This document shows, in pieces, positions 1,392 through 23,369 of a DNA stretch of 32,383 bases (position 1 is the first letter of the stretch; each line of letters starts with the position of its first letter). The notes under the pieces are model-generated. The model was not told the origin of the DNA and made no database searches. It saw nothing but the letters and a program-made list of their open reading frames with translations. This DNA comes from a virus (taxonomy: Duplodnaviria > Heunggongvirae > Uroviricota > Caudoviricetes): IMG/VR virus record IMGVR_UViG_2861069343_000002, positions 1 through 32,383 of that record. One strand, 5' to 3'. A program made the position numbers and the translations under genes.

Positions 1392-1925
1392 TTAAAATAC
1401 GGTGAATACATCACACAGGTCCGATAAAACTTCTCGACAAACATGCCTATGATCGCTGAGCACAGAGTTTATATGCTGAAGTGTTATATACTCTTCATAC
1501 CATTCTTGTGTTACAACATTTTTCAAATTATAGAGCCTGTGAAATGACTCTTTTGCCTCCTGCGAATTAACAAATTGTTGATTATGCCCCATTAACCTCA
1601 TTAAAAACCCCTCCAAACAAAATGGTGAGGATTGAATGATTTGTATGTCTCTATTTCTAGCAGCAGATAGAGCATCAGTAGGTATTGCAAGGTCTGAGTC
1701 AATAAAAACAACTCTTTTATCAAAACTACCAGCATGGTTTATAGCAGCCATTATAGCTGATTTCGGTCCTCCACCGCCGGCATCATCTAACCTAACACTA
1801 AACCCTGCAGTCCTAGTTGTTAAGAGTCGTTTTAAACAATCAGCAAATCTTTTATCAGTAATTCCTTCGCACATCAAAAGCTTAGTTCGTTCAACTCCAC
1901 GCTTTACACGTCTGGGCTTCATCAT
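1392..1925 (-). CDS. RloB-like / TOPRIM-like small protein, partner of the upstream AAA ATPase
   Basis: 177 aa. N-terminal basic stretch then LLMCEGITDKRF (CEGxT[ED] motif as in RloB/DUF4276), later VVFIDSDLA acidic motif. ATG overlaps the ATPase stop (ATGATGA junction at 1922..1925), indicating translational coupling. Confidence 0.5.
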   Translation of the reverse strand: MMKPRRVKRGVERTKLLMCEGITDKRFADCLKRLLTTRTAGFSVRLDDAGGGGPKSAIMAAINHAGSFDKRVVFIDSDLAIPTDALSAARNRDIQIIQSSPFCLEGFLMRLMGHNQQFVNSQEAKESFHRLYNLKNVVTQEWYEEYITLQHINSVLSDHRHVCREVLSDLCDVFTVF

Positions 1926-3274: not shown

Positions 3275-3297
3275 AAAAACATAGACATGATTTAGTT

Positions 3298-6500: not shown

Positions 6501-7345
6501 TCCGCATTCATCTCAGACGTTTTTGCGGCCTTCGCGGAATTTCCTGCCGCCGTTGCCGAGGAAGCTGCACTGCCGGCGCTCGAGGCTGCGCTCGTTTCTG
6601 ATGATTTTGCCGCCACTTTTGAAGCCGACGCATCCCGGGCTGAGGTGGCAGCTTCTGACGCTTTCGTGGTCGCGGTGGATGCAGAAGTGGCCGCAGATTT
6701 TTGTGATGCTGCGGCATTCGTTTCTGACGTTTTCGCTGCACCGGCACTGGTGGCTGCCGCGCTTTTTGAAGACTCTGCAGCGGCAGCACTTTTTGATGCT
6801 TCAGTAGCCTTTGTTGATGCCGTTCCTGCGCTGGAAGACGCTGACTGAGCCGACGACGCGGCCTGTCCGGCTGACGTGCTGGCTGCGCGTGCGGAGTCCG
6901 CAGCATCAGTCGCATGGGTTGCCGCCTCACGGGCTGATGTGCGGGCATCACTGGCTGACTTCTTCGCGGCTGCCGTGTTCTGTGCCACTGCGGACGCGTT
7001 ACGCGCCACCTCTTCCACCATCAGTTCAAAGCGGCGCAGTGCCTCCGGACGGACATCATCCTCCGTCATGGCACCGAGAAAATCATTCAGCGTACCCGGT
7101 TGTGAGTCTTCATACACGGTGATGGTCCCGGCATGCGATGGCGGGAAGCCTTCCACCAACAGAATAACGCTGTACTGACCGTACTCAACGTCCATGCTGT
7201 AACGCCCGGCTTCATCCGGGTTTTCTGAGGCCACTGTGTTCACCACCACCGTGGTGCTGTTACGTTTTGCTTTCAGCTGGATTGTACAGTTCTGTACCGG
7301 TTTACCTGCACCGTCTTTCAGTACACCTGAAATCTTTACTGCCAT
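3587..7345 (-). CDS. stf: Side tail fiber protein (lambda Stf-like N-terminus, A/S/T-rich repeat region, C-terminal peptidase S74 intramolecular chaperone domain)
   Basis: N-terminus MAVKISGVLKDGAGKPVQNCTIQLKA matches lambda Stf N-terminus as recalled. Long Ala/Ser/Thr-rich repetitive segment. C-terminal SDRDLKDDI...NGYTYT...GVIAQEV motif of self-cleaving S74 chaperone. ATG at 7345 preferred over the in-frame GTG at 7351. Confidence 0.85.
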   Translation of the reverse strand: MAVKISGVLKDGAGKPVQNCTIQLKAKRNSTTVVVNTVASENPDEAGRYSMDVEYGQYSVILLVEGFPPSHAGTITVYEDSQPGTLNDFLGAMTEDDVRPEALRRFELMVEEVARNASAVAQNTAAAKKSASDARTSAREAATHATDAADSARAASTSAGQAASSAQSASSSAGTASTKATEASKSAAAAESSKSAAATSAGAAKTSETNAAASQKSAATSASTATTKASEAATSARDASASKVAAKSSETSAASSAGSAASSATAAGNSAKAAKTSEMNADNSAQAAADSQTASANSATAAKKSETNAKNSESAAKVSETNAKASENKAKEYLDKVGGLVSPMTQYDWPVVTGNESFYIKIAKLSDPGSNNCHVTLMVTNGGDYGSPYGNIDFIEISARGLPSSLTADNVSRYLSIRRLGPTGLINSMQMRYGLVKDDGFIEVWAFQRAFINGAKVAVLAQTARTELYIPDGFVKQTAAPSGYVESPVVRIYDQLNKPTKADLGLSNAMLTGAFGLGGSGISTNGKMSDVEILKALRDKGGHFWRGDKPTGSTATIYSHGSGIFSRCGDTWSAINIDYSTAKIKIYAGNDARLNNGTFSINELYGSANKPSKSDVGLGNVTNDAQVKKSGDVMSGDLDILKETPSIRLKSAKGTAHLWFMNNDGSERGVVWSPENNESLGEIHIRAKNTKGESSGDFIVRHDGRVEARNLKITYKISAATAEFANTSTSSDNTTVSIKGSQHTPLVLTSNNTIKNLSIGFKVDDVDQKYLGIAGDGDLYFGSYSDHTKNSKVITQAKLDSGVTVGGKTTFSDLATFNAGMAGSIEPETIDNKTIDLNDLIIANTVAGSVKYYQCKTVAGGAYITNKPDGVSGNFLLRVESTRKTTGSDYAIMQTLIGSDTKRIYVRFVVNGSWTEWSQVVVSGWNQDVTVRSLTSTTPSKLGGGRVDVLGSTSDYSSMNCAVRGVDSTGTNSAWSVGTSKNTGKMLCLKNHRSSAQVLLNGDDGAVQLLSGTVNGATAQALTINKDEVNSTADLVIRKQTGTGNRFALLNSGNSELPVGIRVWGSSTRQNVFEVGTSAAYLFYAQKTSAGQLFDVNGAINCTTLNQSSDRDLKDDILVISDATKAIRKMNGYTYTLRENGMPYAGVIAQEVMEAIPEAVGSFTHYGEELQGPTVDGNELREETRYLNVDYAAVTGLLVQVARETDDRVTALEEENTTLRENLATADTRISTLENQVSELVALVRQLTGSEH

Positions 7346-7354
7346 ATTCACCCC

Positions 7355-8077: not shown

Positions 8078-9604
8078 TCAGCTAATCGTGATACCTGCTG
8101 TGGATTTTTTCATCACCACAACCAGCAAATCACTGATACTGGCTGTGGGATACCAGTCATTTACCAGCCACGCTGATACCGAAAACTCCAGCGTCATGTG
8201 ACCGCGACCAGCAGGCATATCAATAACACCTGTATAAACCAGCGTATTATCCAGCGCGGTACGGTTATAAATTTCAGCACCATTTTTCTTCACTATCAGG
8301 CGGCATGACGAATAAATATCGTTATTCTCCCGCTCATGTTTAGCGCCACGAAACGCCACCGCGGGAATAACAATCTGCCGGTCAAACGGCTGATCGTCAT
8401 AAACCCTGACGGTAATGGTCCCTGATGGCCACCGCTCCGGTGCACGGGAGTCCCGGGGGAAAGCTTTGCCCACTGTTTTAACGAGATCGCCTTCAATCTG
8501 GTTCGCAGACAGTTTTCCCAGAACCCGACAGTTTTCATTTATCGTGACATTGTTGAGCGTCCCGGCGTTCGCATTCACACTGCCACTGATATCCGCATTT
8601 TTCGCCGTCAGTCGCCCATCCGGTGTAAGGGAAAATGCAGGAGGATTACCGCCGCTAGTAATGGTGGGAGCCGTCAGATATTTCAGGAACACGTCGTTCA
8701 TGAATATCTGATCACCCTGACCAACAAACATCGGTTTTGTGTTGCCATTTGCAGGATTAATCATCGCAATCCTGTCTGCCGCCAGCAGCACCTGACTCTG
8801 CATGCCGTCGGGGGTGTTCTCAATACCGGCACCGATACCCGCAATATAAAGGCGTCCATCCTGCATCTGCTGCAGCTTCACAGCCCACATGCTGTTCAGA
8901 TTATTATTTGTATCAACCTGAACCTTCTGTATCTGCTGGATCGCTGCACTCTGGTCTTCCAGTTTCTTATTGACGGTCTGTGTGATTTCATTGCTGACAT
9001 CCGTAATGGATGCCTGCTCTTTAAGCTGACGGATAAACGCCACTTTCTGTCGGGTAGCCTCTTCCTCAGCCTGCGTAAGAACACGGGTTTTCGCCGTAAC
9101 CTCAGAAATCAGCGCCAGATAATCCTGCTGACCAATCCCGCCACTGTTTCTGGCCTGTCGGATCTGCTGCTGAATACGCTGTAATTCCTGCAGCCCCGCA
9201 CTGGCCTGTTTCACACTGTCAATCTGACGATAAAACGCAGCAGCTGCTTTATCCTGAGCCTCCGCCAGAGCCATGGCCTGCGCCTGTTCCTCGCGCATTT
9301 TCTGGCTCAGTGCCTCCATACGCTGGCGGGTTTTCTCCACCTCGCGGGCCATGCGTTCATGAGCCTGTGCGTTCTTCTCCACCGTCTGCGCATGGACGGA
9401 TGCGGCTGTTGCAGCCGAAGACGCCGCCTGCGTTGTCTGCCGGGCGGCCTGAGTCTGACGCTCCATAAAACGCTGCATACGGGCAGAAGACCGTTCTGCA
9501 TCGCTGGCTGCACCATTCAGAAGGTTTTTGATACGGGGAATTTCATTTTTAAACTCTGCCGCATCAATCCCCAAATCAATGACCAGGTTGGCTATCTGGT
9601 CCAT
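8078..9604 (-). CDS. Short tail ORF: tape-measure-like N-terminus (lambda H-like) continuing into a host-specificity J-like C-terminal region; probable in-frame deletion remnant
   Basis: N-terminus [19 protein letters not shown] resembles lambda H N-terminus (recalled); coiled-coil Q/A-rich middle. Position directly upstream of lom is where J ends in lambda. No M/L/K/I genes present. ATG at 9604 with SD GGAGGTG. Confidence 0.5.
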
Positions 9605-9905
9605 AACGCACACCTCCGGAAATACCTTCCCCAAGATGCATCAGTTCTTCGTCCGTTCGCTCCGGTATCCCGTTCTCTTCCGGTAAAAGGCTGAAATCAG
9701 CCACCGCAGCATCACTGCTGCCGGACACCATTCTCACGATCAATGCCTTCAGCGAGGCAAACTGCGCATCCATCCACACATCACTGAAGCTCTGCATCCG
9801 GAAATAATCGCCCCACTCACCAAGCTCAGTGGCCGACATTTCCGACAGCATCCGCCGCCAGTCTGCCCGCCGGAACTCCCGGGCAAGCCGCATGACAAAC
9901 TGCAT
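9576..9905 (-). CDS. Tail assembly chaperone T-frame segment (expressed as G-T fusion by -1 frameshift in lambda-like phages)
   Basis: ORF in -1 frame overlapping the 3' end of the G-like gene, immediately upstream of the tape-measure-like ORF; conserved G/GT arrangement. Confidence 0.5.
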
Positions 9906-9913
9906 TTCCCGCG

Positions 9914-10303
9914 TCAGGACTTTTCCGGCGTCAGCACCTCATGCTCCAAATCCCCGGCATTATCAATGGCCCCCATACCGCTCAGCGACAGAACCATCTC
10001 CGCCCCCGCACCCAGGGCATCATACGACCATGTTGTAATAACGGATGCGTAAAGCGTCTCAACATCCTGAGACTGTTCCGCATTCCACAGTGAGCGGGAA
10101 ACCAGCCAGGCATTGATATCCATCCCCATCCGCAGAAAAGCAATCTGTCGTTCAGCCTCCGGCAGTTCTCCCTCCCCGGCATCAAACTTTGCCGTTCGCT
10201 GCTGAACAAACATCAGATATTCAATTCTCTGCAGCCCGGACAGCTCACTGAGCACCACGGACTGTTTTTCATAATTAAACGTGTCCTGTTTCAGAAACAT
10301 CAT
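9914..10303 (-). CDS. G: Tail assembly chaperone G
   Basis: Position after major tail gene V; MMFLKQDTF...VVLSELSGLQRIEYL resembles lambda G (recalled); SD GGTGGAG before ATG at 10303. Confidence 0.6.
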   Translation of the reverse strand: MMFLKQDTFNYEKQSVVLSELSGLQRIEYLMFVQQRTAKFDAGEGELPEAERQIAFLRMGMDINAWLVSRSLWNAEQSQDVETLYASVITTWSYDALGAGAEMVLSLSGMGAIDNAGDLEHEVLTPEKS

Positions 10304-10360
10304 GTTCTCCACCTGCAAAAAAGCCCCGAATAACCGGGGCAAATGATGAGTATCGTCCTG

Positions 10361-11104
10361 TTAACCTGCTGCGCTGACAGTCACCGCAGCCACAGCCACA
10401 AAATTCCCGTCAGCGGTCATGCCCACAATGCTGACACTGCCCTGCTTCACGCCTTTTACCGTGGCCACAAGTCCGTTCAGGGTAACCGTGGCAGTCTGTG
10501 GATCTGACGAATGCACACTGATCGCTTTGTCACTGGCTCCGTCAGGTTTTACTGTAAAGGTCAGCGTGGTGGTTGCTCCCACTTTTACACTGGCAGATGC
10601 CGGTGATACTGTCAGCCCGGTAACGCTCACGGTTTCAGTGCCTTCCTCTGCCAGATACGGACGCCCCACACCGCTGATTTTCACGGTGCGGGTCATCACG
10701 TCTTTTGAGGCAATGGTTTTACCCAGTGAACTCAGCCAGCCACGGAAAACATCAACAGTACCGTTGGAATATTTGATACGAAACGCGCAGACTTCACCGG
10801 AGTCGAACAACTGAACCAGTTTTTTCTGCCCGCTGTCCCCCGGACGCCAGGCCAGCGTCGCCGAAGTATCACCGACTGATTTCTGCCCCTGGGTTGTCGT
10901 TTTCCAGTCTGCATCTTCATCATCGAGATAAGTGTCATCTTCTGCATCAGCGGTCATTTCGCCAGGTTGCAGATCCTTCACCATCGCAAGACGCAGCCAG
11001 TCAGTGTCCGATAAAGGGTTCGCAAACGCATCGCCCTTGCCGGTATACATCCAGAACGTCGTTCCCGCACCTTTCGTTTTTGCCAGTGGATTTGGTGTGG
11101 TCAT
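10361..11104 (-). CDS. V: Major tail protein V with C-terminal Ig-like domain
   Basis: MTTPNPLAKTKGAGTTFWMYTGKGDAFANPLSD...YLDDEDADW...NGTVDVFRGW closely resembles lambda gpV (recalled); strong SD AAGGAGG before ATG at 11104. Confidence 0.85.
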   Translation of the reverse strand: MTTPNPLAKTKGAGTTFWMYTGKGDAFANPLSDTDWLRLAMVKDLQPGEMTADAEDDTYLDDEDADWKTTTQGQKSVGDTSATLAWRPGDSGQKKLVQLFDSGEVCAFRIKYSNGTVDVFRGWLSSLGKTIASKDVMTRTVKISGVGRPYLAEEGTETVSVTGLTVSPASASVKVGATTTLTFTVKPDGASDKAISVHSSDPQTATVTLNGLVATVKGVKQGSVSIVGMTADGNFVAVAAVTVSAAG

Positions 11105-11114
11105 TACCACCTCC

Positions 11115-11516
11115 TTAATTCGTGTACGTGATCTGGTACGTGATTTCCGCCATCGCCCAGGTGGCCATCTCATTATCACGTTGATAGTTAAAACCGAGTG
11201 GGATCAGGGTGTCGATGAGTCCGGAAAGTGCCGGTACATCATTCAGTGCCGGGAAAATGGTGCTCTCCATCCACATATCCAGCTCTGAATCCGGTGCCTG
11301 TGCCCGGATGAAGACAGCAATATGCAGAACAGCCTGCCAGTCATCTTCATCCGTCATTTTTCCGGTGTACTGAGCATCACTCAGCCACACCGCCACGGCA
11401 GGCAGTTCCTGCGCATCAACAAATGCCGGAAGTCCGTCAAAAAACGTGGCGCTGTCTCCACACTGTTCCCGAAGGCGTGCCAGTACGACCTGGCGGATTT
11501 GTGTATGTCGGTTCAT
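11115..11516 (-). CDS. U: Tail terminator protein U
   Basis: ATFFDG...AVAVWL...DSELDMWMES motifs resemble lambda gpU (recalled); ATGA overlap with upstream Z-like gene. Confidence 0.8.
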   Translation of the reverse strand: MNRHTQIRQVVLARLREQCGDSATFFDGLPAFVDAQELPAVAVWLSDAQYTGKMTDEDDWQAVLHIAVFIRAQAPDSELDMWMESTIFPALNDVPALSGLIDTLIPLGFNYQRDNEMATWAMAEITYQITYTN

Positions 11517-12091
11517 CGGGTCAGCCATAATCTCAGTTGTTGTTTCAGTGCATACCCCAGCTGTTTCGGCATTTCCGCGGCAATGATGCGGTCGCGGGCA
11601 TCTTCAAATGCCTGTGTCAGCGGTCCGGACAGCGGGATTTTCACCACATCAATGGGGTAACGATTTTTGCCATCAATACGCCGCATCACATGCCAGCGAC
11701 CATTCGCCAGTTGCTGAATAAACGCATCCCGGAAAAGATATTTACCCACCTTCAGCACGCTGCCACGGTACTGCAGTTTTCCACCACGCCGGGTCAGTCT
11801 GACCCGGGCGGTCCCCAGCTTAATGGCAGGCAGATTGCCCCGGTTAACGCGGATCCTGGCCGTCATTTTTCCTGACGGACTGGCTTTAAACACCCGGACA
11901 CGCTGACGTACCAGTTTCAGGGGTATCCCTTTCACCTGGTTATCTCCCGCAACGGTATTCCCGGCAACCTGCCGGGTGGCAACCGAGACCGCTTTCTGTG
12001 CCACACGGTTTATCGCCCATGCGCTGGCCTGTGGCACCATACGGGTATCAAGGCTGTTCAGATTGCGGATGGCATTCTCAAGCCCCTTCAT
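11513..12091 (-). CDS. Z: Minor tail / tail completion protein Z-like
   Basis: 192 aa, position between head-tail genes and U; SD AAGAGGTG before ATG. Confidence 0.65.
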   Translation of the reverse strand: MKGLENAIRNLNSLDTRMVPQASAWAINRVAQKAVSVATRQVAGNTVAGDNQVKGIPLKLVRQRVRVFKASPSGKMTARIRVNRGNLPAIKLGTARVRLTRRGGKLQYRGSVLKVGKYLFRDAFIQQLANGRWHVMRRIDGKNRYPIDVVKIPLSGPLTQAFEDARDRIIAAEMPKQLGYALKQQLRLWLTR

Positions 12092-12102
12092 CCCACACCT
12101 CT

Positions 12103-12378
12103 TTACTCAATAAAGATCATTGGCTTACCGTTAAAACGTTCATGCCGTGTGACCGTCCATTGTTGTCCGTCATAAACAACGCGATCCCCGCGCCGTGGGC
12201 GGTATCCCGAAGAAAACACCACCAGAGAGACCGCAGGTCCGGACAGAGCATTCAGCTCTGCCAGTGTTTCGCCCGGGATCACAGCCATATCGACATCATT
12301 AATCGAGGCTGTCTTTCCCATCTTTCTGACCGTGATCGCATCCATACGCGCTGCCAGCCGGGAAAAGGGATCAGACAT
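12103..12378 (-). CDS. Head-tail joining / head completion protein (FII-like), hypothetical
   Basis: 91 aa ORF in head-to-tail junction position; assignment by position only. Confidence 0.4.
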   Translation of the reverse strand: MSDPFSRLAARMDAITVRKMGKTASINDVDMAVIPGETLAELNALSGPAVSLVVFSSGYRPRRGDRVVYDGQQWTVTRHERFNGKPMIFIE

Positions 12379-12694
12379 TGAGTTTTACCGGCACTTCTTC
12401 TGCACTGGTTCCGGCATCTGCCCAGACAACCCCGACCAGCGGATCAGAGCCGCTGTTAGTCAGCTGAACTTTTCCGGACTTCAGATAAACCTTCTTACCC
12501 GTTTTCATGTCATCCGTTTTCAGTTTAGGCAGGATAAACACACCTTCGGTCATGCCGTCGCCTGTTTCACCCTGTGGAATATCGGTCAGCGCCACCGCAA
12601 AAACATCACCCACCTGCACCAGATCTCCGCTGCTGATGGCTGCACTGGCAACAATCGCCACCGTTTTTCCTTCTTCTACAAAATTCTTTGCCAT
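12371..12694 (-). CDS. DUF2190-like small head protein (possible decoration/cement protein)
   Basis: 107 aa from ATG at 12694 with SD GGAGACAG; Gly/Val-rich beta-rich composition; immediately downstream of the capsid gene. Confidence 0.45.
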   Translation of the reverse strand: MAKNFVEEGKTVAIVASAAISSGDLVQVGDVFAVALTDIPQGETGDGMTEGVFILPKLKTDDMKTGKKVYLKSGKVQLTNSGSDPLVGVVWADAGTSAEEVPVKLNV

Positions 12695-12737
12695 AACTGT
12701 CTCCGCACAGCCCCGTTCAGGGGCTGATTTCAGGTAC

Positions 12738-12756
12738 AAAAAAAGCCCTTACGGGC
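12738..12756 (-). terminator. Weak intrinsic terminator/attenuator just downstream of the capsid gene
   Basis: Minus-strand GCCCGTAAGGGC hairpin followed by TTTTTTT, 25 nt after the capsid stop. Confidence 0.35.
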
Positions 12757-12780
12757 CATCAGAGTTGTTGTCTGCGACGT

Positions 12781-14739
12781 TTACGCCGTACATTTCACCA
12801 GACCGCGGTGATCAACTGGCGCGACACCGGCGTCAATACGCACTTTCGTTGTCACGCCATCCACACTGAAGCCCTCCATCTGATCAATATATGGCGTATC
12901 CACACCGTTGAGATAAGCCACTTCAATCGTATCGGAGCCTTTTGACGCAGCCAGGTAGAAGGTGGTCTGGCTGTTATCATCAAGACGAGGCTCTGCAATA
13001 ACGGTCGCAAAATCTTTCACCGGGTTAATAATACCGGCGTTAATGTCAGCCCCCTTGACACTTGAGGAGCGAATGACCTGGTTAGCAACAGACTCCATCG
13101 CCGTCGGTACCAGTACGAACGCAGGACGAATATTCAGATGACGCTCCCCCTCTTTCTGAACGCGCATCAACTGGCGGGCTTTATCCAGCGATGCCACGTC
13201 CATTGCAGCGCTCTCCAGTACGTTTGCATGTTTCGCTTTATCGAACAGACTTACATTATCTGTGGAGATTTTCGGGTTAGACGTCAGAATGGCATAAACC
13301 AGATCGGCAATAGTGGATTTCGCCGCACGGCCCAGTTTCATCGGGACATCGGTCAGCATATTCAGATCATCATTGATAATGGCCTGACGGGTGATACTGA
13401 ACAGCTCGCCATAGGTCGCCAGTGCAATAGTGGCCTGTTTATCTCCGGTGGTGACGTATTTATATTCCGCCCCTTCACGCACCTGACGCAGAGCACTGAA
13501 GCCCCCCATACCCACACGATGGGCAATTTTAAAATCAGACAACTGACCTTTCCGCGTCCACTGTTCATAGGTTTCAGGGGCATCTTCCCAGCCCTGCAGA
13601 ATGGCTTTGTTCGCAACATCCAGCAGAATATTACCGAAGTCAGACGTACTGTGTGTGAACGCCGCACCGACCATCTGCATCGGGTTATAACCGGAAACCC
13701 CAATACCCCGTTCAGTCAGTGACATACGGGCATATTCACGCAGGGTCATCCCGTTGTAGACATTATCACGTTCGGTTTTTTCAAATCCGGCACGCGCCAT
13801 CAGCGCCTGGCGAATCCCGTCCCCCACAAAATTACCGTTACCGGCATAAATATGAGCCGGGGTATTTTTATTGGATGGCGTGGACTCGCGCCCCATCTCG
13901 TTCAACAGCTTTTCACGGGCCTGCTCCAGCGAACATTCAGGATCGGCAAGACACTGAGCCTGCAGCGTCTGATAACGCCCGCCAAACATGGCAAACAGAT
14001 CATTAATACCGTTTACACGCGCTTTTTGCTCTGCCAGTACCTGTGCACGGATGCTGTTTTCATCCACCACGGGTGCTGCTGCCTGCACTGGCGTCCGGGA
14101 GGCTTCAGATTCATTATCCTGTACGCGTGGAGCACTGTTGCGTGGCGGAGTAATCATGTTTCGAATGGATTCCGGCATCTTTTTAAATTCCTCTGTACGT
14201 TTTGACTGAATACATGCCATTGCCTTAACGGCTGGCGTTACCTGATCAGCAAATCCATGTGCCAGACATTCGGCACCGGACATCCAGGTCTCATCCGCCA
14301 GCATGGCAGCAATTTCATCGGTGGTTTTCCCGGTTTTCTGTGCATAAGCGGGTAACAGAACCGCCTCAACTTTATCGAGCAGGTCGGCATAGGTGCGCAT
14401 GTCCTCCGCATCACCGCCCGTAAAGCCAAATGGTTTATGAATCATCATGAAGGTGTTTTCCGGCATAATGACCGGGTTTCCCACCATCGCAATGACCGAC
14501 GCCATTGACGCCGCCACACCGTCGACATAAACGGTAATGGACGCACCATGTGTTTTCAGCGCATTAAAAATGGCGATGCCTTCAAAGACATCGCCACCCG
14601 GTGAATTAATATGGAGATTAATGTGGGTGATATCGCCCAGTGCATTCAGATCACTGATAAACTGCTTCGCTGTAACACCCCAGAAACCAATCTCGTCATA
14701 AATATAAATATCCGCGTCACTCTGGTGACCAGCCTGCAT
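12781..14739 (-). CDS. Prohead protease (ClpP/S49-like) fused to HK97-fold major capsid protein
   Basis: N-terminal DADIYIYDEIGFWGV...INSPGGDVFEG...ASMASVIA serine protease motifs, long C-terminal capsid-like region; first ATG after portal stop chosen (14739); longest ORF extends to 15000. Confidence 0.75.
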   Translation of the reverse strand: MQAGHQSDADIYIYDEIGFWGVTAKQFISDLNALGDITHINLHINSPGGDVFEGIAIFNALKTHGASITVYVDGVAASMASVIAMVGNPVIMPENTFMMIHKPFGFTGGDAEDMRTYADLLDKVEAVLLPAYAQKTGKTTDEIAAMLADETWMSGAECLAHGFADQVTPAVKAMACIQSKRTEEFKKMPESIRNMITPPRNSAPRVQDNESEASRTPVQAAAPVVDENSIRAQVLAEQKARVNGINDLFAMFGGRYQTLQAQCLADPECSLEQAREKLLNEMGRESTPSNKNTPAHIYAGNGNFVGDGIRQALMARAGFEKTERDNVYNGMTLREYARMSLTERGIGVSGYNPMQMVGAAFTHSTSDFGNILLDVANKAILQGWEDAPETYEQWTRKGQLSDFKIAHRVGMGGFSALRQVREGAEYKYVTTGDKQATIALATYGELFSITRQAIINDDLNMLTDVPMKLGRAAKSTIADLVYAILTSNPKISTDNVSLFDKAKHANVLESAAMDVASLDKARQLMRVQKEGERHLNIRPAFVLVPTAMESVANQVIRSSSVKGADINAGIINPVKDFATVIAEPRLDDNSQTTFYLAASKGSDTIEVAYLNGVDTPYIDQMEGFSVDGVTTKVRIDAGVAPVDHRGLVKCTA

Positions 14740-14752
14740 CCTGAACCAGGAA

Positions 14753-16261
14753 TTATTCTTCGGACTGGTCGTCGGTGTGCTGCGGCTCCTGTCGTTTCGT
14801 TGCGGCACTACTGCCTCCTTTATCACTGGCCGGATCGGTATCAAATACCAGATCCAGCTTGCGGTTTTCATCAATTTCGGCCTTGCGCCGACGTTTGACA
14901 TCATCCGGATTACGACCACCAGCACGTACCCAGTCTGATTCTGTCGCCGCTCCACCACGAATCTGGATTTTCCAGGCCTCAGCCTCCTTAACAGGGTCAA
15001 TCCACGGCATCACCGGTCCGGAATACACCGCGGTATACAGTGAAGAACGGTCAAGATCGCGGGGTAGCCTGATAACACCGGATGCCACAGCCTGTTTCAG
15101 CCAGGCACGATACATCGGACGGGTGACGGCACCAATAAACCAGTCCTGCAGGATCAGGTAGCCATCAGTGGATTCAACCAGCTCCTGACGCTGGGCGCTG
15201 TAAGTGCCGTTATAGTTGCGCGCTGTACTGGAAAAACTCAGACGACTGCCCGCCGCCACGGCACGCAACTGACCATTACGAAAAGTTTCAAGGTTAGGAT
15301 TGGGGCGATCCGACTTCACCATTCCGATTTCTTCGCCGGGTTTCAGATCATCGTAAATAATGCCTGGCTGAATGGTAAGCTCGCGTTCCTTATCCTTGCT
15401 GCCATTACCATCCGCTTCATAGCTCTGCCCGTCGCCTTTCCGGATGTACATCCCCAGAGCAGCGGCGATCCTTGCTGCAGTCAGCTCAGAATCTTCATAC
15501 TCTTTCAGAGCACTGAGGCGGATCAGCACACCGGACAATAAAGACGTCCCGCGCATCTGGTGCAGACGGCGAACAAATTTAAGATGCAGCATTCGCTCTG
15601 CATCCACTTCTTTGGTTTCCATCTGCCGTCCGGATACGGGACGGCTTTTATACACCAGATATTTTTCGGGACGCCCCCAGTCATCAACAAACACGCCCTG
15701 ATTCAGCCTGTTGCTCTCATCACTGGTCATGGGAATAAAGTCCGGCTCGAGCGCCTCCAGCCAGAAATGAACACCGGCAGAAGGCGTCAGGCTGTTTATG
15801 CGCCCGGAAACCATCTGGGCAAACACCTCACCATCGCGCAGCCAGGTACGAAGCATCAGACGTTCCAGCATCGGACGGGTAAACTGCCCGGTGACTTCCG
15901 GGCTGACAGACCATTCACTCCATCGGGTGCGAATCTCCGCAGCCAGGTCACGGGCAATGGCCCCATTGCGTAATACCGGATGTGGCTCGACAATAATCCC
16001 GTTTTTCCCCACCACCCGTTCTTCCAGCTTGTCAAATACACCAATAACCAGATCGTGGTTGTTATCAAGGTAACGGGCCTGCTCACGTAACGACACGGCC
16101 CCGTACTGGCTTAACTGGTCGGCAGTTCGGTTCTCCCGTCGGGCTTTGTGTGTCCGCGTCGTTTTTACGGCCTCATAAGCCTGGATCACCGCACGGGAAC
16201 GCAGCCTTGCCGCTTTCCATCCTGGTGAAAAAACGCCAATCACATCATCAAGAATTGCCAT
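14753..16261 (-). CDS. Portal protein (lambda-family portal-like)
   Basis: About 500 aa ORF immediately upstream of the protease-capsid gene; no Walker A motif (argues against terminase); acidic C-terminus. Start uncertain: ATG 16261 (SD GAGG), ATG 16291 (ATGA overlap with endolysin stop) or GTG 16303. Confidence 0.65.
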   Translation of the reverse strand: MAILDDVIGVFSPGWKAARLRSRAVIQAYEAVKTTRTHKARRENRTADQLSQYGAVSLREQARYLDNNHDLVIGVFDKLEERVVGKNGIIVEPHPVLRNGAIARDLAAEIRTRWSEWSVSPEVTGQFTRPMLERLMLRTWLRDGEVFAQMVSGRINSLTPSAGVHFWLEALEPDFIPMTSDESNRLNQGVFVDDWGRPEKYLVYKSRPVSGRQMETKEVDAERMLHLKFVRRLHQMRGTSLLSGVLIRLSALKEYEDSELTAARIAAALGMYIRKGDGQSYEADGNGSKDKERELTIQPGIIYDDLKPGEEIGMVKSDRPNPNLETFRNGQLRAVAAGSRLSFSSTARNYNGTYSAQRQELVESTDGYLILQDWFIGAVTRPMYRAWLKQAVASGVIRLPRDLDRSSLYTAVYSGPVMPWIDPVKEAEAWKIQIRGGAATESDWVRAGGRNPDDVKRRRKAEIDENRKLDLVFDTDPASDKGGSSAATKRQEPQHTDDQSEE

Positions 16262-16287
16262 CAGAACCTCGCCAGCCGGTACTCTGC

Positions 16288-16785
16288 TCATTGTTGCCCC
16301 CACAAACAGACTTCACGCTCAATCTCACGACGAGTCATCAGGCCTTTCCATTGCTTACCGCCAGCGTATATCCAGCGACGTAGCTGGTCACATGCGCCTT
16401 TGATATCGCCCTGGTTTATTTTGCGAAGAAGCGTCGATGTTCTGAAATTACCAGCACCCACGTTGTAGACGAACGAGTAAAGAGCGCCGCGCGTTGTTTC
16501 CGGTATATCGACTTTGATGTACGGGTTAATTTGTCTGGCAACCGTGGCAAGGTCTTTATTCAGGAGGGCTTTGCATTCTGCTTCGGTATACGTTTTACCG
16601 AGCATGATGTCTTTTCCGGTGTGTCCGTGACATACAGTCCATACGCCAACGATATCTTTGTATGGTATGTAGCTGACACCTTCCAGGCCATCGTCACCAC
16701 TTGGGCCAGTGATTAACACTGATGCTATAGCAATTGCTCCGCCACCAATAGCAGCAGCAACTGCTTTTCGTAATGATGGAGGCAT
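16288..16785 (-). CDS. SAR endolysin (GH24 lysozyme with N-terminal signal-anchor-release domain)
   Basis: N-terminal Gly/Ala-rich weakly hydrophobic segment [20 protein letters not shown] followed by lysozyme-like domain; start overlaps pinholin stop by 1 nt. Confidence 0.8.
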
Positions 16786-17000
16786 TATTCACCTCTCGCA
16801 GCCTTGCGCTTATCTTCTTTAATCTTGAAATAAAGGTTTGTCAGGTACGTCAGCAGGCCAAATACCAGACTACCCAGCACACCTATTGCCGCCCACTGTG
16901 AGGGCGTGACTTTATCGAGCAACTGTAAAAACCAGTACCCGGCACTACCTGCTGAGGTGCCATAGGCGACACCCGTTGTTAACTTATCCATGGATTTCAT
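16785..17000 (-). CDS. Pinholin, phage 21 S-like with dual start motif (MKSMDK)
   Basis: [29 protein letters not shown]...[36 protein letters not shown] closely resembles phage 21 S21 (recalled); two in-frame ATGs separated by two codons; SD GAGGTG. Confidence 0.85.
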
Positions 17001-17036
17001 AACCCCACCTCGCAGATGCGGGTGCTGTGTAATGGA

Positions 17037-17061
17037 AATAAAAAGGCCACCTGACGTGGCC
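17037..17061 (-). terminator. Intrinsic terminator between the N6-MTase gene and the lysis cassette
   Basis: Minus-strand GGCCAC-GTCAG-GTGGCC hairpin followed by TTTTTATTT. Confidence 0.45.
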
Positions 17062-17067
17062 ACCAGA

Positions 17068-18120
17068 TTATTTCCCCACCAGCTCGTTTATCTCTTTCAC
17101 TGTCTGGTTAAACCGCTCTGACTCAAGCTCAACACCTAAGGCCCGACGCCCCAGCGCCATTGCTGCTTTTATTGTGGAACCGGATCCCATAAAAAAATCA
17201 GCAACCAGATCACCTGGTCGACTACTGGCATTGATTATTTGCCTGAGCATATCCGCCGGTTTCTCACACGGATGTTTCCCCGGGTAGAACTGAACGGGTT
17301 TATGCATCCAGACATCGGTATAAGGCACGGAGACTGATACGGAGAAATAGCGCCGGAGAGATTTAAACTCATCCAGCAATTCAGAATATTTGCGATTCAG
17401 TGAATCATAAGATGCCACCAGCTGGTGGTGTGGTTGTTCCAGTTGTTGTTCCTGAAACTTCTCTGCCGCTATACGGGAAAACAGTGCCTGTAACTTCCGA
17501 TAGTCAGCCTCATTCGGCAACTGCCACTGACTGGCACCAAACCAGTGGGAAACCATATTTTTCTTACCTGTGGCTTCGGCAATTTGTTTTGCCGTTACAC
17601 CCAGTTCGGCACGAGCATCCCTGAAATACGATATCAGCGGTGCCATTATGTGCTGTTTGAGTTCCCTTTCTTTTGCCGCATAGCCGTCACTTTTGCCGCG
17701 ATATGGTCCCTGGTAATGTTCAGCAAACAGAACGCGCTCTGTGGCAGGAAAATATGCGCGCAGACTTTCTTTATTACACCCATTCCAACGTCCGGACGGC
17801 TTCGCCCAGATGATATGGTTAAGCACGTTGAAACGTTCACGCATCATGATCTCAATATCAGATGCCAGGCGATGCCCACAGAACAGGTAAAGGCTTCCGG
17901 CAGGTTTCAACACCCGCCAGAACTGGGCCAGACAGTGGTCCAGCCACTTAAGGTAATCTTCGTCCCCTTTCCACTGATTGTCCCAACCGTTGGGTTTCAC
18001 CTTGAAGTAAGGCGGATCGGTAACAATCAGGTCAATGGAATCATCAGGCAGGGACTGAATAAAATGCAGGCAATCAGCGTTGATTAAATCAACACTGTTT
18101 ATTTTTACAGTATTTTTCAT
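17068..18120 (-). CDS. DNA N6-adenine (or N4-cytosine) methyltransferase, beta-class, orphan phage MTase
   Basis: Motif IV DPPY near N-terminus (LIVTDPPYF) and AdoMet motif I FMGSGST near C-terminus; 350 aa. Confidence 0.8.
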
Positions 18121-18269
18121 GGATCAGTAAGCGTAACTCTGGTAGGCTCACTCTGCTTTTGCGCTAAAGCAGTGGGCCGTGGTTCGCTTGTGACCAGTAA
18201 GCATGAGCGAATGGCTGGCAGGTGCTACCAACACCCACCAGCCGCCCATTTTCACAAATTAAAAGTCCT

Positions 18270-18464
18270 TCATTGCTGAAGGCGTCTGTAACAGCCGAAC
18301 TGGTAATCTGCCAGCCCCGCCATAACCAACTGGGTCAGTATTAACTGACAGCGTTCGCGTGAAAGATATGTGTTTTGTGCAATCTCCCCGACTGTTGCCG
18401 GTTCGATGCTTAATTCATTAAAAACAACTTTCGCCGTTTCTGTCATATCTTGCTGTTTTAGCAT
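18270..18464 (-). CDS. Hypothetical small protein, possible HTH
   Basis: 64 aa from ATG 18464 with SD AAGGA; segment TVGEIAQNTYLSRERCQL is HTH-like. Weak support. Confidence 0.3.
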   Translation of the reverse strand: MLKQQDMTETAKVVFNELSIEPATVGEIAQNTYLSRERCQLILTQLVMAGLADYQFGCYRRLQQ

Positions 18465-18586
18465 GTCTTTTTTCCTTCTGGTTAACATGACATACCAATA
18501 ACTCTTGTCTAAAAAGCCAGCAAGATAAAAAGTCAGTATTCACGACCACCAGCGTGTTTACCGTACTGCACCAGGTTTACAGGTAC

Positions 18587-18612
18587 AAAAAAACCCGCTC
18601 GACGGCGGGTTT
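18587..18612 (-). terminator. Strong minus-strand intrinsic terminator upstream of the plus-strand cassette
   Basis: Minus-strand AAACCCGC-CGTCGA-GCGGGTTT hairpin followed by TTTTTTT. Confidence 0.5.
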
Positions 18613-18657
18613 AAGTTGTGTGGCGAAGTAACCACTCTTAACACAATACAATACTTT

Positions 18658-18686
18658 TTGCGTACGCGTTATAGTTTTCTTACAAT
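18658..18686 (+). promoter_or_regulatory. Candidate sigma70 promoter of the DUF262-HEPN cassette
   Basis: TTGCGT (18658..18663), 17 nt spacer, TACAAT (18681..18686); SD AAGGAA then ATG at 18713. Confidence 0.3.
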
Positions 18687-18712
18687 CAACTTTCAATTAA
18701 AGGAACGAAAAC

Positions 18713-19873
18713 ATGACTACACTCAAAGAACTCAAAGAAGAGCTTGCTCAGATACAAGATGAACACGCTAAGAACAGAAAAAAGGCTGAAATTGCAGCTT
18801 TAACCGCTTCCGCTGACAATGAAATCAGACTCGCTCAGAGAAACATTGGATACAATGTACGTGAGTGGACCGTTGAAGTCATTATTCAAAAGTATGGTGA
18901 TAATATTGAAAATGACAAAAACGAGCTTTTTATTCCAGATTATCAACGTGATTACAAGTGGGATACAAAAACAGCCTCTCGCTTTATAGAAAGTATTCTA
19001 TTAGACTTTCCAATACCTTACCTTTACATTGCTGATGTATTTAATGAAGACCCTGAATTAGATGGTAGGGTAGAAATCATTGATGGTTCACAACGGATAC
19101 GCTCTATTTATTATTTTTGGAACGATCAATTTGAGTTAAAGGATTTGAAAGAGCTTAAAAGTTTAGAAGGTTTCAAATTTTCAGATCTTTTAGCTAGCCG
19201 CCAAAGAAGATTTTTAAGAGCTTCACTAAGATTTATTGAGTTGAAAGGTGATGTTGAGGAACAACATAGAAGAGATTTATTTGAAAGGATCAACTCAGGT
19301 GTTAAAAGATTAGAAGCGATGGAAGTGAGGCATGGCTCAGATGCTGCTACCTCAATGTTCTATAAAGATGTTGTGACCCCATGCTCAACAAACTCACTTT
19401 TTTCCCAACTAGCTCCATTATCAGACCGGAAACGGTCGAATGGCGATCATCGTGAGTTAGTTTTGAGATTTTTTGCATATTTAAATGATTTAGAAAACTA
19501 TAAGGGATTTGTCCGTCCCTTTATTGATAATTATTTAAATGAACAAGCAGCAGCTGTGACTACTCAACAAGATGTTGATAATTTTAAACATGATTTTGAA
19601 ATGATGCTTGCTTTTGTTGCTACCCATTTCCCTATTGGCTTTAAAAAGACCGCAACAAGTAAAACCACCCCACGAGCCAGATACGAAGCCATTGCCGTGG
19701 GAACTGCACTTGCATTAAAAACTAACCCACAACTCCAGAGTCCAGCCGTACCTGTAGGTGAATGGCTATTTGAAGAGGAATTTGAAACACTTGTTACTGC
19801 TGATAGTGCAAACAATACCAGCCAGCTAAAAAACAGAATCTTTTACGTTAAAAATAAGTTGTTAGGGATTTAA
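18713..19873 (+). CDS. DUF262 (ParB/Srx-like, GmrS-type N-terminal domain) protein
   Basis: 386 aa; hallmark motifs FIPDYQRDYKW and IIDGSQRIRSI (DGQQR variant); no DUF1524/HNH C-terminal domain evident; AT-rich. Confidence 0.75.
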   Translation: MTTLKELKEELAQIQDEHAKNRKKAEIAALTASADNEIRLAQRNIGYNVREWTVEVIIQKYGDNIENDKNELFIPDYQRDYKWDTKTASRFIESILLDFPIPYLYIADVFNEDPELDGRVEIIDGSQRIRSIYYFWNDQFELKDLKELKSLEGFKFSDLLASRQRRFLRASLRFIELKGDVEEQHRRDLFERINSGVKRLEAMEVRHGSDAATSMFYKDVVTPCSTNSLFSQLAPLSDRKRSNGDHRELVLRFFAYLNDLENYKGFVRPFIDNYLNEQAAAVTTQQDVDNFKHDFEMMLAFVATHFPIGFKKTATSKTTPRARYEAIAVGTALALKTNPQLQSPAVPVGEWLFEEEFETLVTADSANNTSQLKNRIFYVKNKLLGI

Positions 19874-19875
19874 AA

Positions 19876-20565
19876 ATGAGTCTAATTGATTTACGAGATG
19901 AATATGAAGAAAGAGCAAGAGACATTATGGAACTGCTTTCTCTTGCATCATCTATAGAGATTCATACTCAGCAGTTAGATCCGCAAGCGCATCAAGATGA
20001 AATAGAATCTAATATCCTAAGGGTAAATATTTTAAAATCATCCGTTCATATGATGCTATATAATCAAGTTGAAAATACTGCCAGAGGTTGCATCGAGTCA
20101 ATTTATGATCATTTACAAGATAATGAGGTGAATTACGCATCACTCAGGGAGAAGCTTCAAGTAAATATATTACATAGAATTGTTTCAGATAATGAAACAG
20201 GGCAATCCCTTTATAAAAAGATAGGCACTGACATTTCCAAAAGAATAATTTCAGCCTCATTGAATATTCGTAAAGAATTCAATGGTAATGTTTGCAAGCC
20301 TGTATTACACAAAATAACGCAGGCTTACGGAATAACTATCGCAAACTCACCTGAATGTAGAAATGGTATTGACTTAGACTTGCTTAAGGATATCAGAAAC
20401 GAACTCGCGCATGGAAGTACTAGCTTCTCTAAAAAGGGGCAAATTGACCCCTTAGAAGAAGTTAAGTCTAGAGCAGAGAGAGTTGATCTATATCTTCGTT
20501 TATTAATAAACTCAACTGAAGATTATATTATCTCTAACGGATATTTATCCCCTCAACATGCCTAA
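19876..20565 (+). CDS. HEPN-domain protein (Rx4H motif), putative RNase effector coupled to the DUF262 gene
   Basis: 229 aa; RNELAH matches HEPN R-x4-6-H; starts 2 nt after the DUF262 stop with SD AGGGA; 3' end overlaps convergent MTase gene by 32 nt. Confidence 0.65.
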   Translation: MSLIDLRDEYEERARDIMELLSLASSIEIHTQQLDPQAHQDEIESNILRVNILKSSVHMMLYNQVENTARGCIESIYDHLQDNEVNYASLREKLQVNILHRIVSDNETGQSLYKKIGTDISKRIISASLNIRKEFNGNVCKPVLHKITQAYGITIANSPECRNGIDLDLLKDIRNELAHGSTSFSKKGQIDPLEEVKSRAERVDLYLRLLINSTEDYIISNGYLSPQHA

Positions 20566-21574
20566 CAAACGTTCTCCCTATTACTTGGCCAATTATAGGG
20601 GGAACAGCATTACCAATCATCGTTCCTAACTTTTGGAATGAAAAAGGCGTATTTTTTCCAATAAATTTATAATCCATAGGAAAAGATTGTAAAATAGCAG
20701 CTTCACGCAAAGTTATTGCTCTATTTTGCTCAGGATGTCCGAATCGCCCATTACCATATCCATAACATTGGGTAGTTATTGTAGGACTAGTATCGTCCCA
20801 AACCATCCGTCCATAAACACTTTTATAGGTAGCACCTGAATGCTTTTTATGGCAATCCGCTCTAATTTCTTCAGGCCAATCATCCCACGTACCACCTGGT
20901 AAAGAGTGCAAGATTCGTTTAAGGTTAATATCCCTTAATTTAGGCGAACGATGCAATGGATCACTTTCGAGTTTCTCCCCTGCACCTATTTTTGGCAACT
21001 GACCAATAGCATCCTTTACTGTAACTTTACGGCTTACTTTTTTTTGATCAAGGCTGATTGGCCCCAATATGGACCCAATTAGAATTAATCTACGTCTATT
21101 TTGAGGCAAGCCATACTCGGAACATTTTACAACGTCGTACCACAGATGATACCCAAGAGTCTTTAATACACTAACAAACTCTTCAAAAACCTTATGATTT
21201 CTAAGTTGAGGAACATTTTCCATAGTCACAAGCTCTGGCATGACATCACTTACAATCCTCTGAAACTCAGATAAAAGACGCCACTTTGTATCATCTTTTC
21301 TGCTATTTGGATTACGATACTTGGAAAACGGTTGGCAAGGGGCACAGCCTGCAAGTAATCTAATATTTCCTTCCTTGAACATAGCAGACACATCGCTGGA
21401 TTGCAGTTCAGTAACTGACTGGTTAATGAACTTCGTTAAGGGATTATTGCTCTCAATAGCGAAACGGCAGGACTCATCAATATCAATGCCATGAGAAACT
21501 TCAATCCCGGCTTTTTTTAGCCCAAAAGTTAAGCCCCCTGCGCCACAAAAAATGTCTACTGCTTGAATGTTCAC
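20534..21574 (-). CDS. DNA cytosine-5 methyltransferase (Dcm-like), first gene of the late operon
   Basis: Motif I DIFCGAGG, motif IV GCAPCQPFS (catalytic PC), motif VI ENV, motif VIII QNRRR, motif X GNAV; GTG start at 21574 with SD GGAGAA. Confidence 0.85.
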   Translation of the reverse strand: MNIQAVDIFCGAGGLTFGLKKAGIEVSHGIDIDESCRFAIESNNPLTKFINQSVTELQSSDVSAMFKEGNIRLLAGCAPCQPFSKYRNPNSRKDDTKWRLLSEFQRIVSDVMPELVTMENVPQLRNHKVFEEFVSVLKTLGYHLWYDVVKCSEYGLPQNRRRLILIGSILGPISLDQKKVSRKVTVKDAIGQLPKIGAGEKLESDPLHRSPKLRDINLKRILHSLPGGTWDDWPEEIRADCHKKHSGATYKSVYGRMVWDDTSPTITTQCYGYGNGRFGHPEQNRAITLREAAILQSFPMDYKFIGKNTPFSFQKLGTMIGNAVPPIIGQVIGRTFVRHVEGINIR

Positions 21575-21600
21575 AAGATTCTCCGTTACTTTACCCTGGT

Positions 21601-21629
21601 ATTATATACACATAAAAGTTGGGAAAGTA
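21601..21629 (-). promoter_or_regulatory. Candidate late promoter (pR'-like) downstream of Q
   Basis: Minus-strand TATAAT (plus attata 21601..21606) in the 79-bp Q-to-MTase gap; -35 poor (TACTTT). Confidence 0.25.
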
Positions 21630-21653
21630 GAATGATTTTACATAGCACTTAAC

Positions 21654-22007
21654 TCATTGTATTAAATAAAAAAATGACAAGCATCCATCAATAAACCCCA
21701 TAGCTGTTTGCATATCTTTTCGAACTGTTCCGTCTGAACATTTCCGCTTCTTTGCAATTGTACGGAGCGAAATGCCAACAACAAAGTGAGCAATTATCAG
21801 CTCATACTCTGCCGGCTTGTATTTACGCAACCTAGCGACACAACCGTCTATTATGATGCCCTCATCATCATCGCACTGAATCCGGGACTTTCTGCCATGA
21901 GGTAAAAGCCGCTTGAAGCCAGCAGCTACCGGTTGCCAGTCCACACCACTGTTTTCTGCAGCAGCCCATGCCCCCCAGCGGTCCAAAACTTCATACATAT
22001 CACGCAT
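21654..22007 (-). CDS. Late gene antiterminator Q-family protein (Phage_antitermQ-like)
   Basis: LDRWGAWAA...W...AAGFKRL...SRIQCDDDEGIIIDGCVARL pattern matches small phage Q proteins as recalled; position before late operon; ATG 22007 with SD GGAGAAAG. Confidence 0.65.
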   Translation of the reverse strand: MRDMYEVLDRWGAWAAAENSGVDWQPVAAGFKRLLPHGRKSRIQCDDDEGIIIDGCVARLRKYKPAEYELIIAHFVVGISLRTIAKKRKCSDGTVRKDMQTAMGFIDGCLSFFYLIQ

Positions 22008-22024
22008 CAACTTTCTCCACAAAA

Positions 22025-23020
22025 TCAGGCCAGCACGCCAATTGCCAGCGCACGATCGATAAAACGAAATATCAGCTCCAGCTGGGAGCCATACATCTCT
22101 TCAAATGCCACGGTATCTGCATGCAGCTCGTCGTGATGCTTTCTGCACAAAGGCAACACAAAGAGGTCATGCGCTTTTGTACCCATTCCACCCTGACCGT
22201 GACCTATCAGGTGGTGGGGATCATCAGCAGGCTTTCCACAACATGCACACGGCTGTGTCTTAACCCAGCGCGTGTACTTTTCATTAACCCAGCGGCGACG
22301 TTTTGGGCGTAACATAAAAGACTCCGGCGACTCCGGATCCACTTTCAGCGCCAGCACCTTTTTCGCCTTATCCTGGATGATGCTGGTAGCAGGAACCGAA
22401 GGCACAAGGTCACTTTCCCGGGTGACAGACGGCACAACAGGCTTCGGTAATCTCAGTGCCTTACGGGCTGCACTTTCCGGTAAGGCATCCGCCAGGTCAT
22501 TACGAATCAGCCACCAGCACAGTTCCGGCATTGTCACAACGTGACTGTCATCAAAACCGAGATCCCGACGCACAACAGACAACACCCAGCGGGCACAGTT
22601 ATCCGTTGCCATTGATTCCAGCCGTTCCGTGAACTGATCACGCAGCTGGTTATCGCAGTGCCAGCACAGACGGATTGCACCCGGAGCGTGTCGCATTGTG
22701 GTCATGTTCTCGCTGTGCCAGTCGGAATGAGGCCACTGGCAGCCTTTTTCACGAAGTAACCAGCTTTCAAGACATTCCACGCCACCAGCACGACGGATCA
22801 CTGCCTCATTGCGGAACACGGCCCAAACGGCAGGATCATCCGCCAGCGGTTGTGACGCCGCGGGAACGGCACCACTGGCGAAAGATGAATAATGCTCCGG
22901 CTCAGGCTCCAGCAGGACACGCCCCTGCATAAACAGGGGCATCAGCTCTGAACCGGGCCTGAACAATACGATCCCCATACGCGGGGCAATTTCAGGGGTC
23001 AGTAGTGCTCTCACGGTCAC
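22025..23020 (-). CDS. DUF968 protein (YdfU-like) with C-terminal HNH-like zinc motif
   Basis: C-terminus QPCACCGKPADDPHHLIGHGQGGMGTKAHDLFVLPLCRKHHDELH; GTG start at 23020 (alternative ATG 22978). Confidence 0.65.
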   Translation of the reverse strand: MTVRALLTPEIAPRMGIVLFRPGSELMPLFMQGRVLLEPEPEHYSSFASGAVPAASQPLADDPAVWAVFRNEAVIRRAGGVECLESWLLREKGCQWPHSDWHSENMTTMRHAPGAIRLCWHCDNQLRDQFTERLESMATDNCARWVLSVVRRDLGFDDSHVVTMPELCWWLIRNDLADALPESAARKALRLPKPVVPSVTRESDLVPSVPATSIIQDKAKKVLALKVDPESPESFMLRPKRRRWVNEKYTRWVKTQPCACCGKPADDPHHLIGHGQGGMGTKAHDLFVLPLCRKHHDELHADTVAFEEMYGSQLELIFRFIDRALAIGVLA

Positions 23021-23021
23021 C

Positions 23022-23369
23022 TCAATGAACGGTATCGAGCAGCTTTAACAGCTCAGGGACCAGTTTTTCCGCCTGGCGAGTCAGGCACAAAATCACCCGG
23101 GAATCGTTAGTGCCGACATAGAAATTGCGCACAGGTCTGGTTTCACGAACTGGTTGTGGTTCCGGCTCCTGCGCTCTCTCAGTCAGGCGCGGGAAATGTC
23201 TGCGTGTATCCCCTTCACAACGGTGAGCCACACGCCCACTCTGACGTAACTTGCTTGCTGACTGCAGAACGCGCTGCCGTGAGTAACCTGCAAAAGCATC
23301 CGCAATGTCTCCGGAAGTACAGCCCGGATGGGCTTCAATGAATTTCTGAACTTCATTCAAAAGACTCAT
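23022..23369 (-). CDS. Hypothetical prophage protein
   Basis: 115 aa from ATG 23369 (SD GGGGGTGA); position between replication gene and DUF968. Confidence 0.4.
   Translation of the reverse strand: MSLLNEVQKFIEAHPGCTSGDIADAFAGYSRQRVLQSASKLRQSGRVAHRCEGDTRRHFPRLTERAQEPEPQPVRETRPVRNFYVGTNDSRVILCLTRQAEKLVPELLKLLDTVH

Follow-up and report, generated by a model that had tools for sequence, protein, structure and literature searches.

A probable 4,058-bp deletion of packaging and spanin genes between endolysin and portal in an mEp460-like lambdoid prophage of Escherichia coli

The window analysed here (the whole stretch of DNA, 32,383 nucleotides) very probably carries an mEp460-like lambdoid prophage at tRNA-Thr/proA which lost 4,058 bp by a single illegitimate recombination and is now a defective, vertically inherited remnant. 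Judged from related sequences, the deletion would begin at Rz codon 5 and end 18-21 nt before the portal ATG, and the lost block would comprise the Rz/Rz1 spanins, a 50-aa ORF, cos, the DUF1441 small terminase (TerS), the gpA-family large terminase (TerL) and a gpW/Ad1-like adaptor. The first-pass annotation had claimed that spanin and terminase genes were absent between endolysin and portal, which held when examined by tblastn and by comparison with strain 204; its estimate of about 3 kb for the missing DNA had to be replaced by 4,058 bp net relative to strain 204. The features discussed below were listed in Table 1.

Table 1 Positions of genes, gene remnants and deletion junctions in the window
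Feature	Position	Strand	Basis or remark
AbiL-like two-gene pair	1392-3196	-	AAA_21 ATPase of 424 aa (PADLOC AbiLi E=1e-65) overlapping 177-aa partner (AbiLii E=1.5e-9)
Tail-fibre gene, single 1,254-aa ORF	3587-7351	-	Long Ala/Ser/Thr-rich repetitive N-proximal region
Deletion A, ~7.8 kb, tape-measure N-terminus::gpJ C-terminus	8078 to about 9604-9634, junction 9008-9016	-	BLAST vs L003
ClpP-like prohead protease/major capsid protein (MCP) fusion	12781-14808	-	PF00574 + PF25209; RefSeq product name in IH5
Portal, lambda gpB family, 502 aa, complete	14753-16261	-	PF05136; WP_000985945.1
70-aa gpW/Ad1-like head-tail adaptor remnant, last 6 codons (YRLARF) + stop overlapping portal ATG	16261-16281	-	tblastn 16264-16281, 6/6 identical; L003 20962-21174
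Deletion junction B	16277-16282		BLAST vs strain 204 locus L003; column views; megablast end-points in thousands of genomes
Rz (i-spanin) remnant, ATG + S-R-V codons, fused in frame to portal leader	16280-16291	-	Sibling Rz begins MSRVTAIIS...
Endolysin, rrrD-type lysozyme, 165 aa, intact	16288-16785	-	PF00959 E=1.8e-45
Holin, essD-type, P21 S family	16785-17000	-	PF04971 E=3.6e-35; annotated essD, WP_000839596.1, in sibling loci
N6/N4-type DNA methylase	17068-18120	-	Upstream of holin in gene order
DUF262/GmrSD_N protein	18713-19873	+	PADLOC NsnA-like, E=6e-45; divergent pair with HEPN gene
MAE_28990-type HEPN protein	19876-20565	+	Pair with DUF262 gene, cargo island
Dcm-type C5 methyltransferase	20534-21574	-	Cargo island
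Antiterminator Q, late-gene activator, upstream of cargo and lysis genes	21654-22007	-	RefSeq annotation, identical sequence in IH5 and N169
Deletion junction C, ~1.5 kb	23058-23059		BLAST vs L003 (strain 204) and L002 (N2456)
Tyrosine integrase by attachment site	29807-30925	+	RefSeq annotation
tRNA-Thr (CGT), thrW integration site beside proA	30940-31015	-	ARAGORN; annotation

A full-length prophage at the same thrW site was found in strain 204 (NZ_CM134209.1, locus L003), where the two halves joined in the window are about 4 kb apart. The holin, endolysin, portal, N6-methylase, DUF262, HEPN, Dcm and Q proteins of this prophage have the same accessions as those of the window sequence. Two colinear blocks were aligned by BLAST (window 9008-16282 with L003 13708-20983, and window 16277-23059 with L003 25035-31818), and the difference between their offsets gave the 4,058 bp net missing from the window. 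At the DNA level, strain 204 and the window were 99.985% identical from endolysin to DUF968 and about 98.8-98.9% identical in the head and early regions. Because the identity on the head side was only 98.8%, strain 204 was regarded as a sibling and not the direct ancestor, and the ancestral sequence at the endpoints is therefore one that we infer.

The interval between endolysin and portal in strain 204 contains, in order, Rz/Rz1, the 50-aa ORF, cos, DUF1441 TerS, gpA-type TerL and the 70-aa gpW/Ad1-like adaptor. The 155-aa 'lysis protein' of this interval is Rz (PF03245, E=8e-29 in Pfam), and nested in the +1 frame of the Rz gene is an ORF that has both a lipobox (…LIMVVGC…) and a tail rich in proline, which we take, from lambda Rz/Rz1, to be the signature of the o-spanin Rz1. 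The DUF1441 protein (PF07278) is named small terminase in isolated-phage records, the large terminase (700 aa) has a gpA ATPase domain (PF05876) and a nuclease domain (PF20454), and the 70-aa ORF is named head-to-tail joining protein W or Ad1 adaptor in phage records. A non-coding stretch of 676 bp was listed between the 50-aa ORF and the DUF1441 gene. The whole 4.2-kb stretch was 98.6-99% identical to phages vB_EcoS-569R4, phi458, mEp460 and Ayreon. Since the linear records of mEp460 and Ayreon open about 25 nt upstream of the TerS gene, cos should lie inside the deleted interval.

These four isolated lambdoid siphophages share the late-gene order of the window outside the lost segment. The order in the mEp460 group is holin, endolysin, Rz/Rz1, cos, DUF1441 TerS, gpA-type TerL, small adaptor, lambda-type portal and ClpP/MCP fusion. 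In contrast to this group, the window has no segment from Rz to the adaptor, has lost three early genes and most of the stretch from tape measure to gpJ, and carries cargo genes of its own.

The minus strand is the coding strand for the holin, endolysin, portal and protease/capsid genes. The endolysin gene ends with TGA at 16290-16288; the protein does not differ from the one encoded by the full-length prophage of strain 204, and its N-terminus presumably resembles a signal-anchor-release (SAR) segment. The 516-aa ORF at 14753-16303 is a mechanical ORF opening at a GTG within the endolysin gene, and it appears to overlap the endolysin as a result of the fusion of the Rz remnant with the portal leader together with this upstream in-frame GTG. 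The native portal ATG is at 16261, where RefSeq starts the 502-aa WP_000985945.1 on identical sequence in other genomes, and it is preceded by GGCGAGG, which looks like a putative ribosome-binding site. At 16291 there is another ATG, which shares bases with the endolysin stop (ATGA). The claim that the endolysin stop overlaps the first possible portal starts was thus right as a description of coordinates, but the native start codon is 26 nt downstream of that stop. The portal protein is identical to that of the strain 204 sibling and is therefore not truncated; an N-terminal truncation of the portal was rejected, as the 502-aa protein is the same as in the full-length prophage. The gene next to it is the ClpP/MCP fusion, and a position directly upstream of a prohead protease/major capsid gene is the one expected of a portal.

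The adaptor, TerL, TerS, 50-aa ORF and Rz proteins were searched against the window by tblastn. The sole real match of the five was the last six codons of the adaptor, and the other matches in the window were chance ones (E of at least 0.5). The window holds only the first four Rz codons and thus no Rz/Rz1 spanin. In the RefSeq (PGAP) annotation of the identical sequence in six genomes, no terminase or spanin was named. The first-pass annotation had raised, as an objection to its own claim, that the 516-aa ORF might itself be a terminase or that a terminase gene might lie elsewhere in the prophage. An unrecognised terminase, either this ORF or a non-homologous protein elsewhere in the prophage, is extremely improbable: the ORF fits the lambda portal profile end to end (PF05136, E=5.5e-82, 276.2 bits with a cutoff of 32.9, profile positions 3-354 of 354), it had no match to a terminase family in Pfam and does not belong to the gpA-family TerL, tblastn with TerL and TerS was blank, and PGAP gave a name to every CDS of the identical sequence in the carrier loci, none of them a terminase.

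Alignment to an intact relative, which had been proposed as a check, gave a clean internal deletion with mapped endpoints and an intact portal N-terminus. On the portal side, homology to strain 204 reaches 16282 with one mismatch at 16279, and on the lysis side it runs from 16277 with one 1-nt gap. On the plus strand, the window reads …GCCAGCCG-G-TAC-TCTGCTCATTG… at the junction, the portal flank of strain 204 reads …GCCAGCCG-A-TAC-CCGGG… and its lysis flank reads …ATCGCGG-T-TAC-TCTGCTCATTG…, and the junction sits in a 3-6-bp imperfect microhomology. Short microhomology at a join is the usual footprint of illegitimate recombination. The G at 16279 fits neither flank unless a SNP or a 1-nt slip is assumed, which leaves two options for the crossover, either within TAC with a SNP or at CGG with a 1-nt slip. 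This junction-proximal G was found in no available intact relative, the best intact matches having one mismatch. In gene orientation the window reads ATG AGC AGA GTA CCG GCT GGC GAG GTT CTG ATG GCA…, in which the Rz start and three further codons (M-S-R-V) are in frame with the 18 nt preceding the portal ATG. A single event of illegitimate recombination would have excised the 4,058 bp and joined the ends at the 3-6-bp imperfect microhomology. An insertion sequence as the cause was rejected, as there is no IS at the junction and the flanks join directly at the imperfect microhomology. An IS1 remnant was found in genome IH5 only, at a different place.

The junction region was megablasted against 5,426 complete E. 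coli genomes. The lysis half was present in 4,191 and the portal half in 1,896 of these 5,426 genomes, and the two halves were joined in seven. In non-carrier genomes, the similarity on the lysis side starts at window position 16277 and that on the portal side stops at 16282. The exact 61-nt junction string was found in all six carrier loci examined (listed as N169, N196, IH5, AR437, 23GD35035 and a window-like IH5 segment), with the seventh match, N137, left out. A collapsed or mis-joined contig can hardly be credited as the origin of the abutment, given that six complete genomes, each sequenced independently, have the same 61-nt junction. The carrier genomes came from Switzerland, Iraq and China, and the origin of AR437 is unrecorded. 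With the exception of N196, the carriers differed from the window by 1-10 mismatches over 17-28 kb, which points to a recent clonal origin. IH5 was 99.996% identical to the window over 4041-32383 (one mismatch), and the two diverge to the left of this stretch; N169 and AR437 agree with the window at its left end but have larger internal deletions. Among the complete genomes there was no match to the whole window.

Besides the packaging block, two further blocks retained by strain 204 were missing from the window, namely a 7.8-kb tail block and a 1.5-kb early block. Deletion A took out the gpM/L/K/I-like genes and the greater part of both the tape measure and gpJ. It leaves a tape-measure::J chimera of 518 aa, in which Pfam finds only the J C-terminal PF09327 and PF12421 (residues 231-518), which represent the tail-tip and receptor-binding domains at the C-terminus of gpJ. 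Among the carriers, only IH5 has the same junction. Deletion C removes KilA-N, RusA and LexA-family genes present in the strain 204 sibling, and its exact junction was common to six of the six carrier loci examined. The structural genes of the carriers erode in different ways. N196 has no further structural deletion, its head and tail genes all being present; the 7.8-kb tape-measure::J deletion is common to IH5 and the window; N169 and AR437 lack everything between a point inside the ClpP/MCP gene and the tail tip or lom; and in 23GD35035 the loss starts within the portal itself. The simplest reading of this distribution is that the packaging and early-region deletions arose once and that the further deletions probably accumulated independently later. 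The same prophage at the same thrW site has decayed differently in N2456 (locus L002), where Rz and TerS are kept and TerL breaks off after some 160 codons. In place of the entire morphogenesis region, N2456 (L002 1-19000) has unrelated genes, among them those for an FRG-domain protein, a TOTE conflict-system primase, YfjI/YagK-like proteins and an Rpn nuclease.

The ends of the element are those of a cryptic prophage. A 64-nt repeat of window 30922-30985 was located by BLAST about 0.5 kb beyond the left end of the window, in locus L001, and together with the integrase and the tRNA integration site it bounds the element, which has lost essential particle genes relative to intact relatives (the packaging block, and the tape measure through J). 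In sibling genomes the annotation splits the tail-fibre gene into a pseudogene fragment and a 'pyocin knob domain-containing S74 family peptidase', which suggests that the repeat region may vary in length or frame. The AbiL-like pair lies downstream of the tail-fibre genes within the att-bounded element; it is absent from the strain 204 copy, which differs left of window position 3295. A cargo island (17068-21574) is situated between antiterminator Q and holin, and it was intact in all sibling loci, the full-length prophage included. In Stx phages this Q-holin position is occupied by the Stx toxin genes.

The claim that immunity, lysis and cargo genes are retained was correct as a description, since the element keeps repressor and early genes, Q, defence-type cargo, holin, endolysin, portal and capsid genes; this retention is no evidence of selection. 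A selected 'domestication', in which the removal of packaging disarms the prophage and the Q-controlled holin/endolysin and the defence-type cargo stay on to the benefit of the host, was considered unlikely. It agrees with the observation that in six of six carrier loci examined the Q-cargo-lysis block and the AbiL-like pair at the left end are intact and the structural genes variously eroded, and with cargo genes (the methylases, the DUF262 and HEPN pair, the AbiL-like pair) that match defence-system profiles; models also predict that host-beneficial genes are retained (PMC7744054). However, seven carriers among 5,426 genomes, with so few mismatches to the window (N196 excepted), fit a single recent clone and not repeated selection, the roughly 99.98% identity of the retained genes to the intact sibling means too little time for visible purifying selection, and N2456 decayed differently at the same site, keeping Rz and part of TerL. 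Slightly less likely still is the specific form in which the packaging deletion would be a selected disarming in one E. coli clone, with the spanin-less, Q-controlled holin/endolysin and the defence cargo as a host-serving module (e.g. for abortive infection or controlled lysis) and the capsid genes decaying neutrally afterwards. Under the preferred reading of plain prophage decay, the 99.98% identity of the retained DNA to the full-length sibling suggests that the deletion is recent, and the lysis, portal and capsid genes would still be intact because the deletion is young.

As capsid and portal genes are present without a terminase, a helper-dependent satellite (PICI-like or capsid-forming), terminase-less by design and borrowing packaging from a helper, was also weighed and found very improbable. 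Apart from three simple deletions, it is colinear with a full-length mEp460-type prophage, at 98.8-99.98% identity, cos is absent too, the junction is very rare (7/5,426), sister strains are losing even their capsid and portal genes, and no satellite-type hallmark genes were annotated in the carrier loci. PICIs and capsid-forming PICIs are distinct, conserved and compact elements with their own packaging-redirection module in many genomes, and the prophage described here is not of this kind.

Lambda-type packaging requires cos, a small subunit which recognises cos, and a large subunit which nicks and translocates the DNA. With cos and both terminase subunits gone, the element would be unable to package its own genome, and because cos is missing, the terminase of a related helper should not rescue packaging specifically. 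The deletion from tape measure to J would also block the building of the tail tip, and the loss of the adaptor would be an additional block. The conclusion of the first-pass annotation that the prophage is a defective remnant unable to package DNA was therefore supported by the deletion of TerS, TerL, cos, adaptor and spanins. The loss of Rz/Rz1 would leave a holin-endolysin pair. Without spanins, disruption of the outer membrane is impaired in some conditions and degradation of peptidoglycan still occurs. The late operon, if still transcribed, would read from endolysin directly into portal. A promoter/terminator scan around the junction gave no terminator-like site on the gene strand in the endolysin-portal interval. 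Any surviving Q-dependent late transcription would run into the portal and capsid genes. A strong terminator-like hairpin at 17045-17061 (-), GGCCACGTCAGGTGGCC then TTTTTATTT, sits in the gap between the N6 methylase and holin genes, and it may be a terminator which is read through by Q-modified polymerase.

The lysis genes of the window are named essD/rrrD by PGAP. DLP12 and Qin of E. coli K-12 are cryptic lambdoid remnants in which the holin/endolysin cassette is kept and particle formation was lost through internal deletions; they presumably retain Rz/Rz1 homologues and lack most head genes. Compared with DLP12 and Qin, the window has lost the spanins and still has its genes for portal, capsid and proximal tail. 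What is seen here is ordinary decay of a kind already known, and the element is a textbook defective lambdoid prophage. The loss of the packaging genes with intact lysis, portal and capsid genes is the only detail which is mildly unusual. A published survey of prophage annotations showed that the genes preferentially missing from incomplete prophages were those for terminase, portal and lysis, and it was suggested that terminase genes, being large, are easy targets (PMC7744054).

The prophage should be scored as defective despite its intact-looking lysis, portal and capsid genes, which has little import beyond annotation, and endpoints at the base level can now be given for the inactivating deletion. 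The sister strains form a natural series in which a prophage at a single chromosomal site erodes step by step, and this could be used as a small worked example or to mark this E. coli clone.
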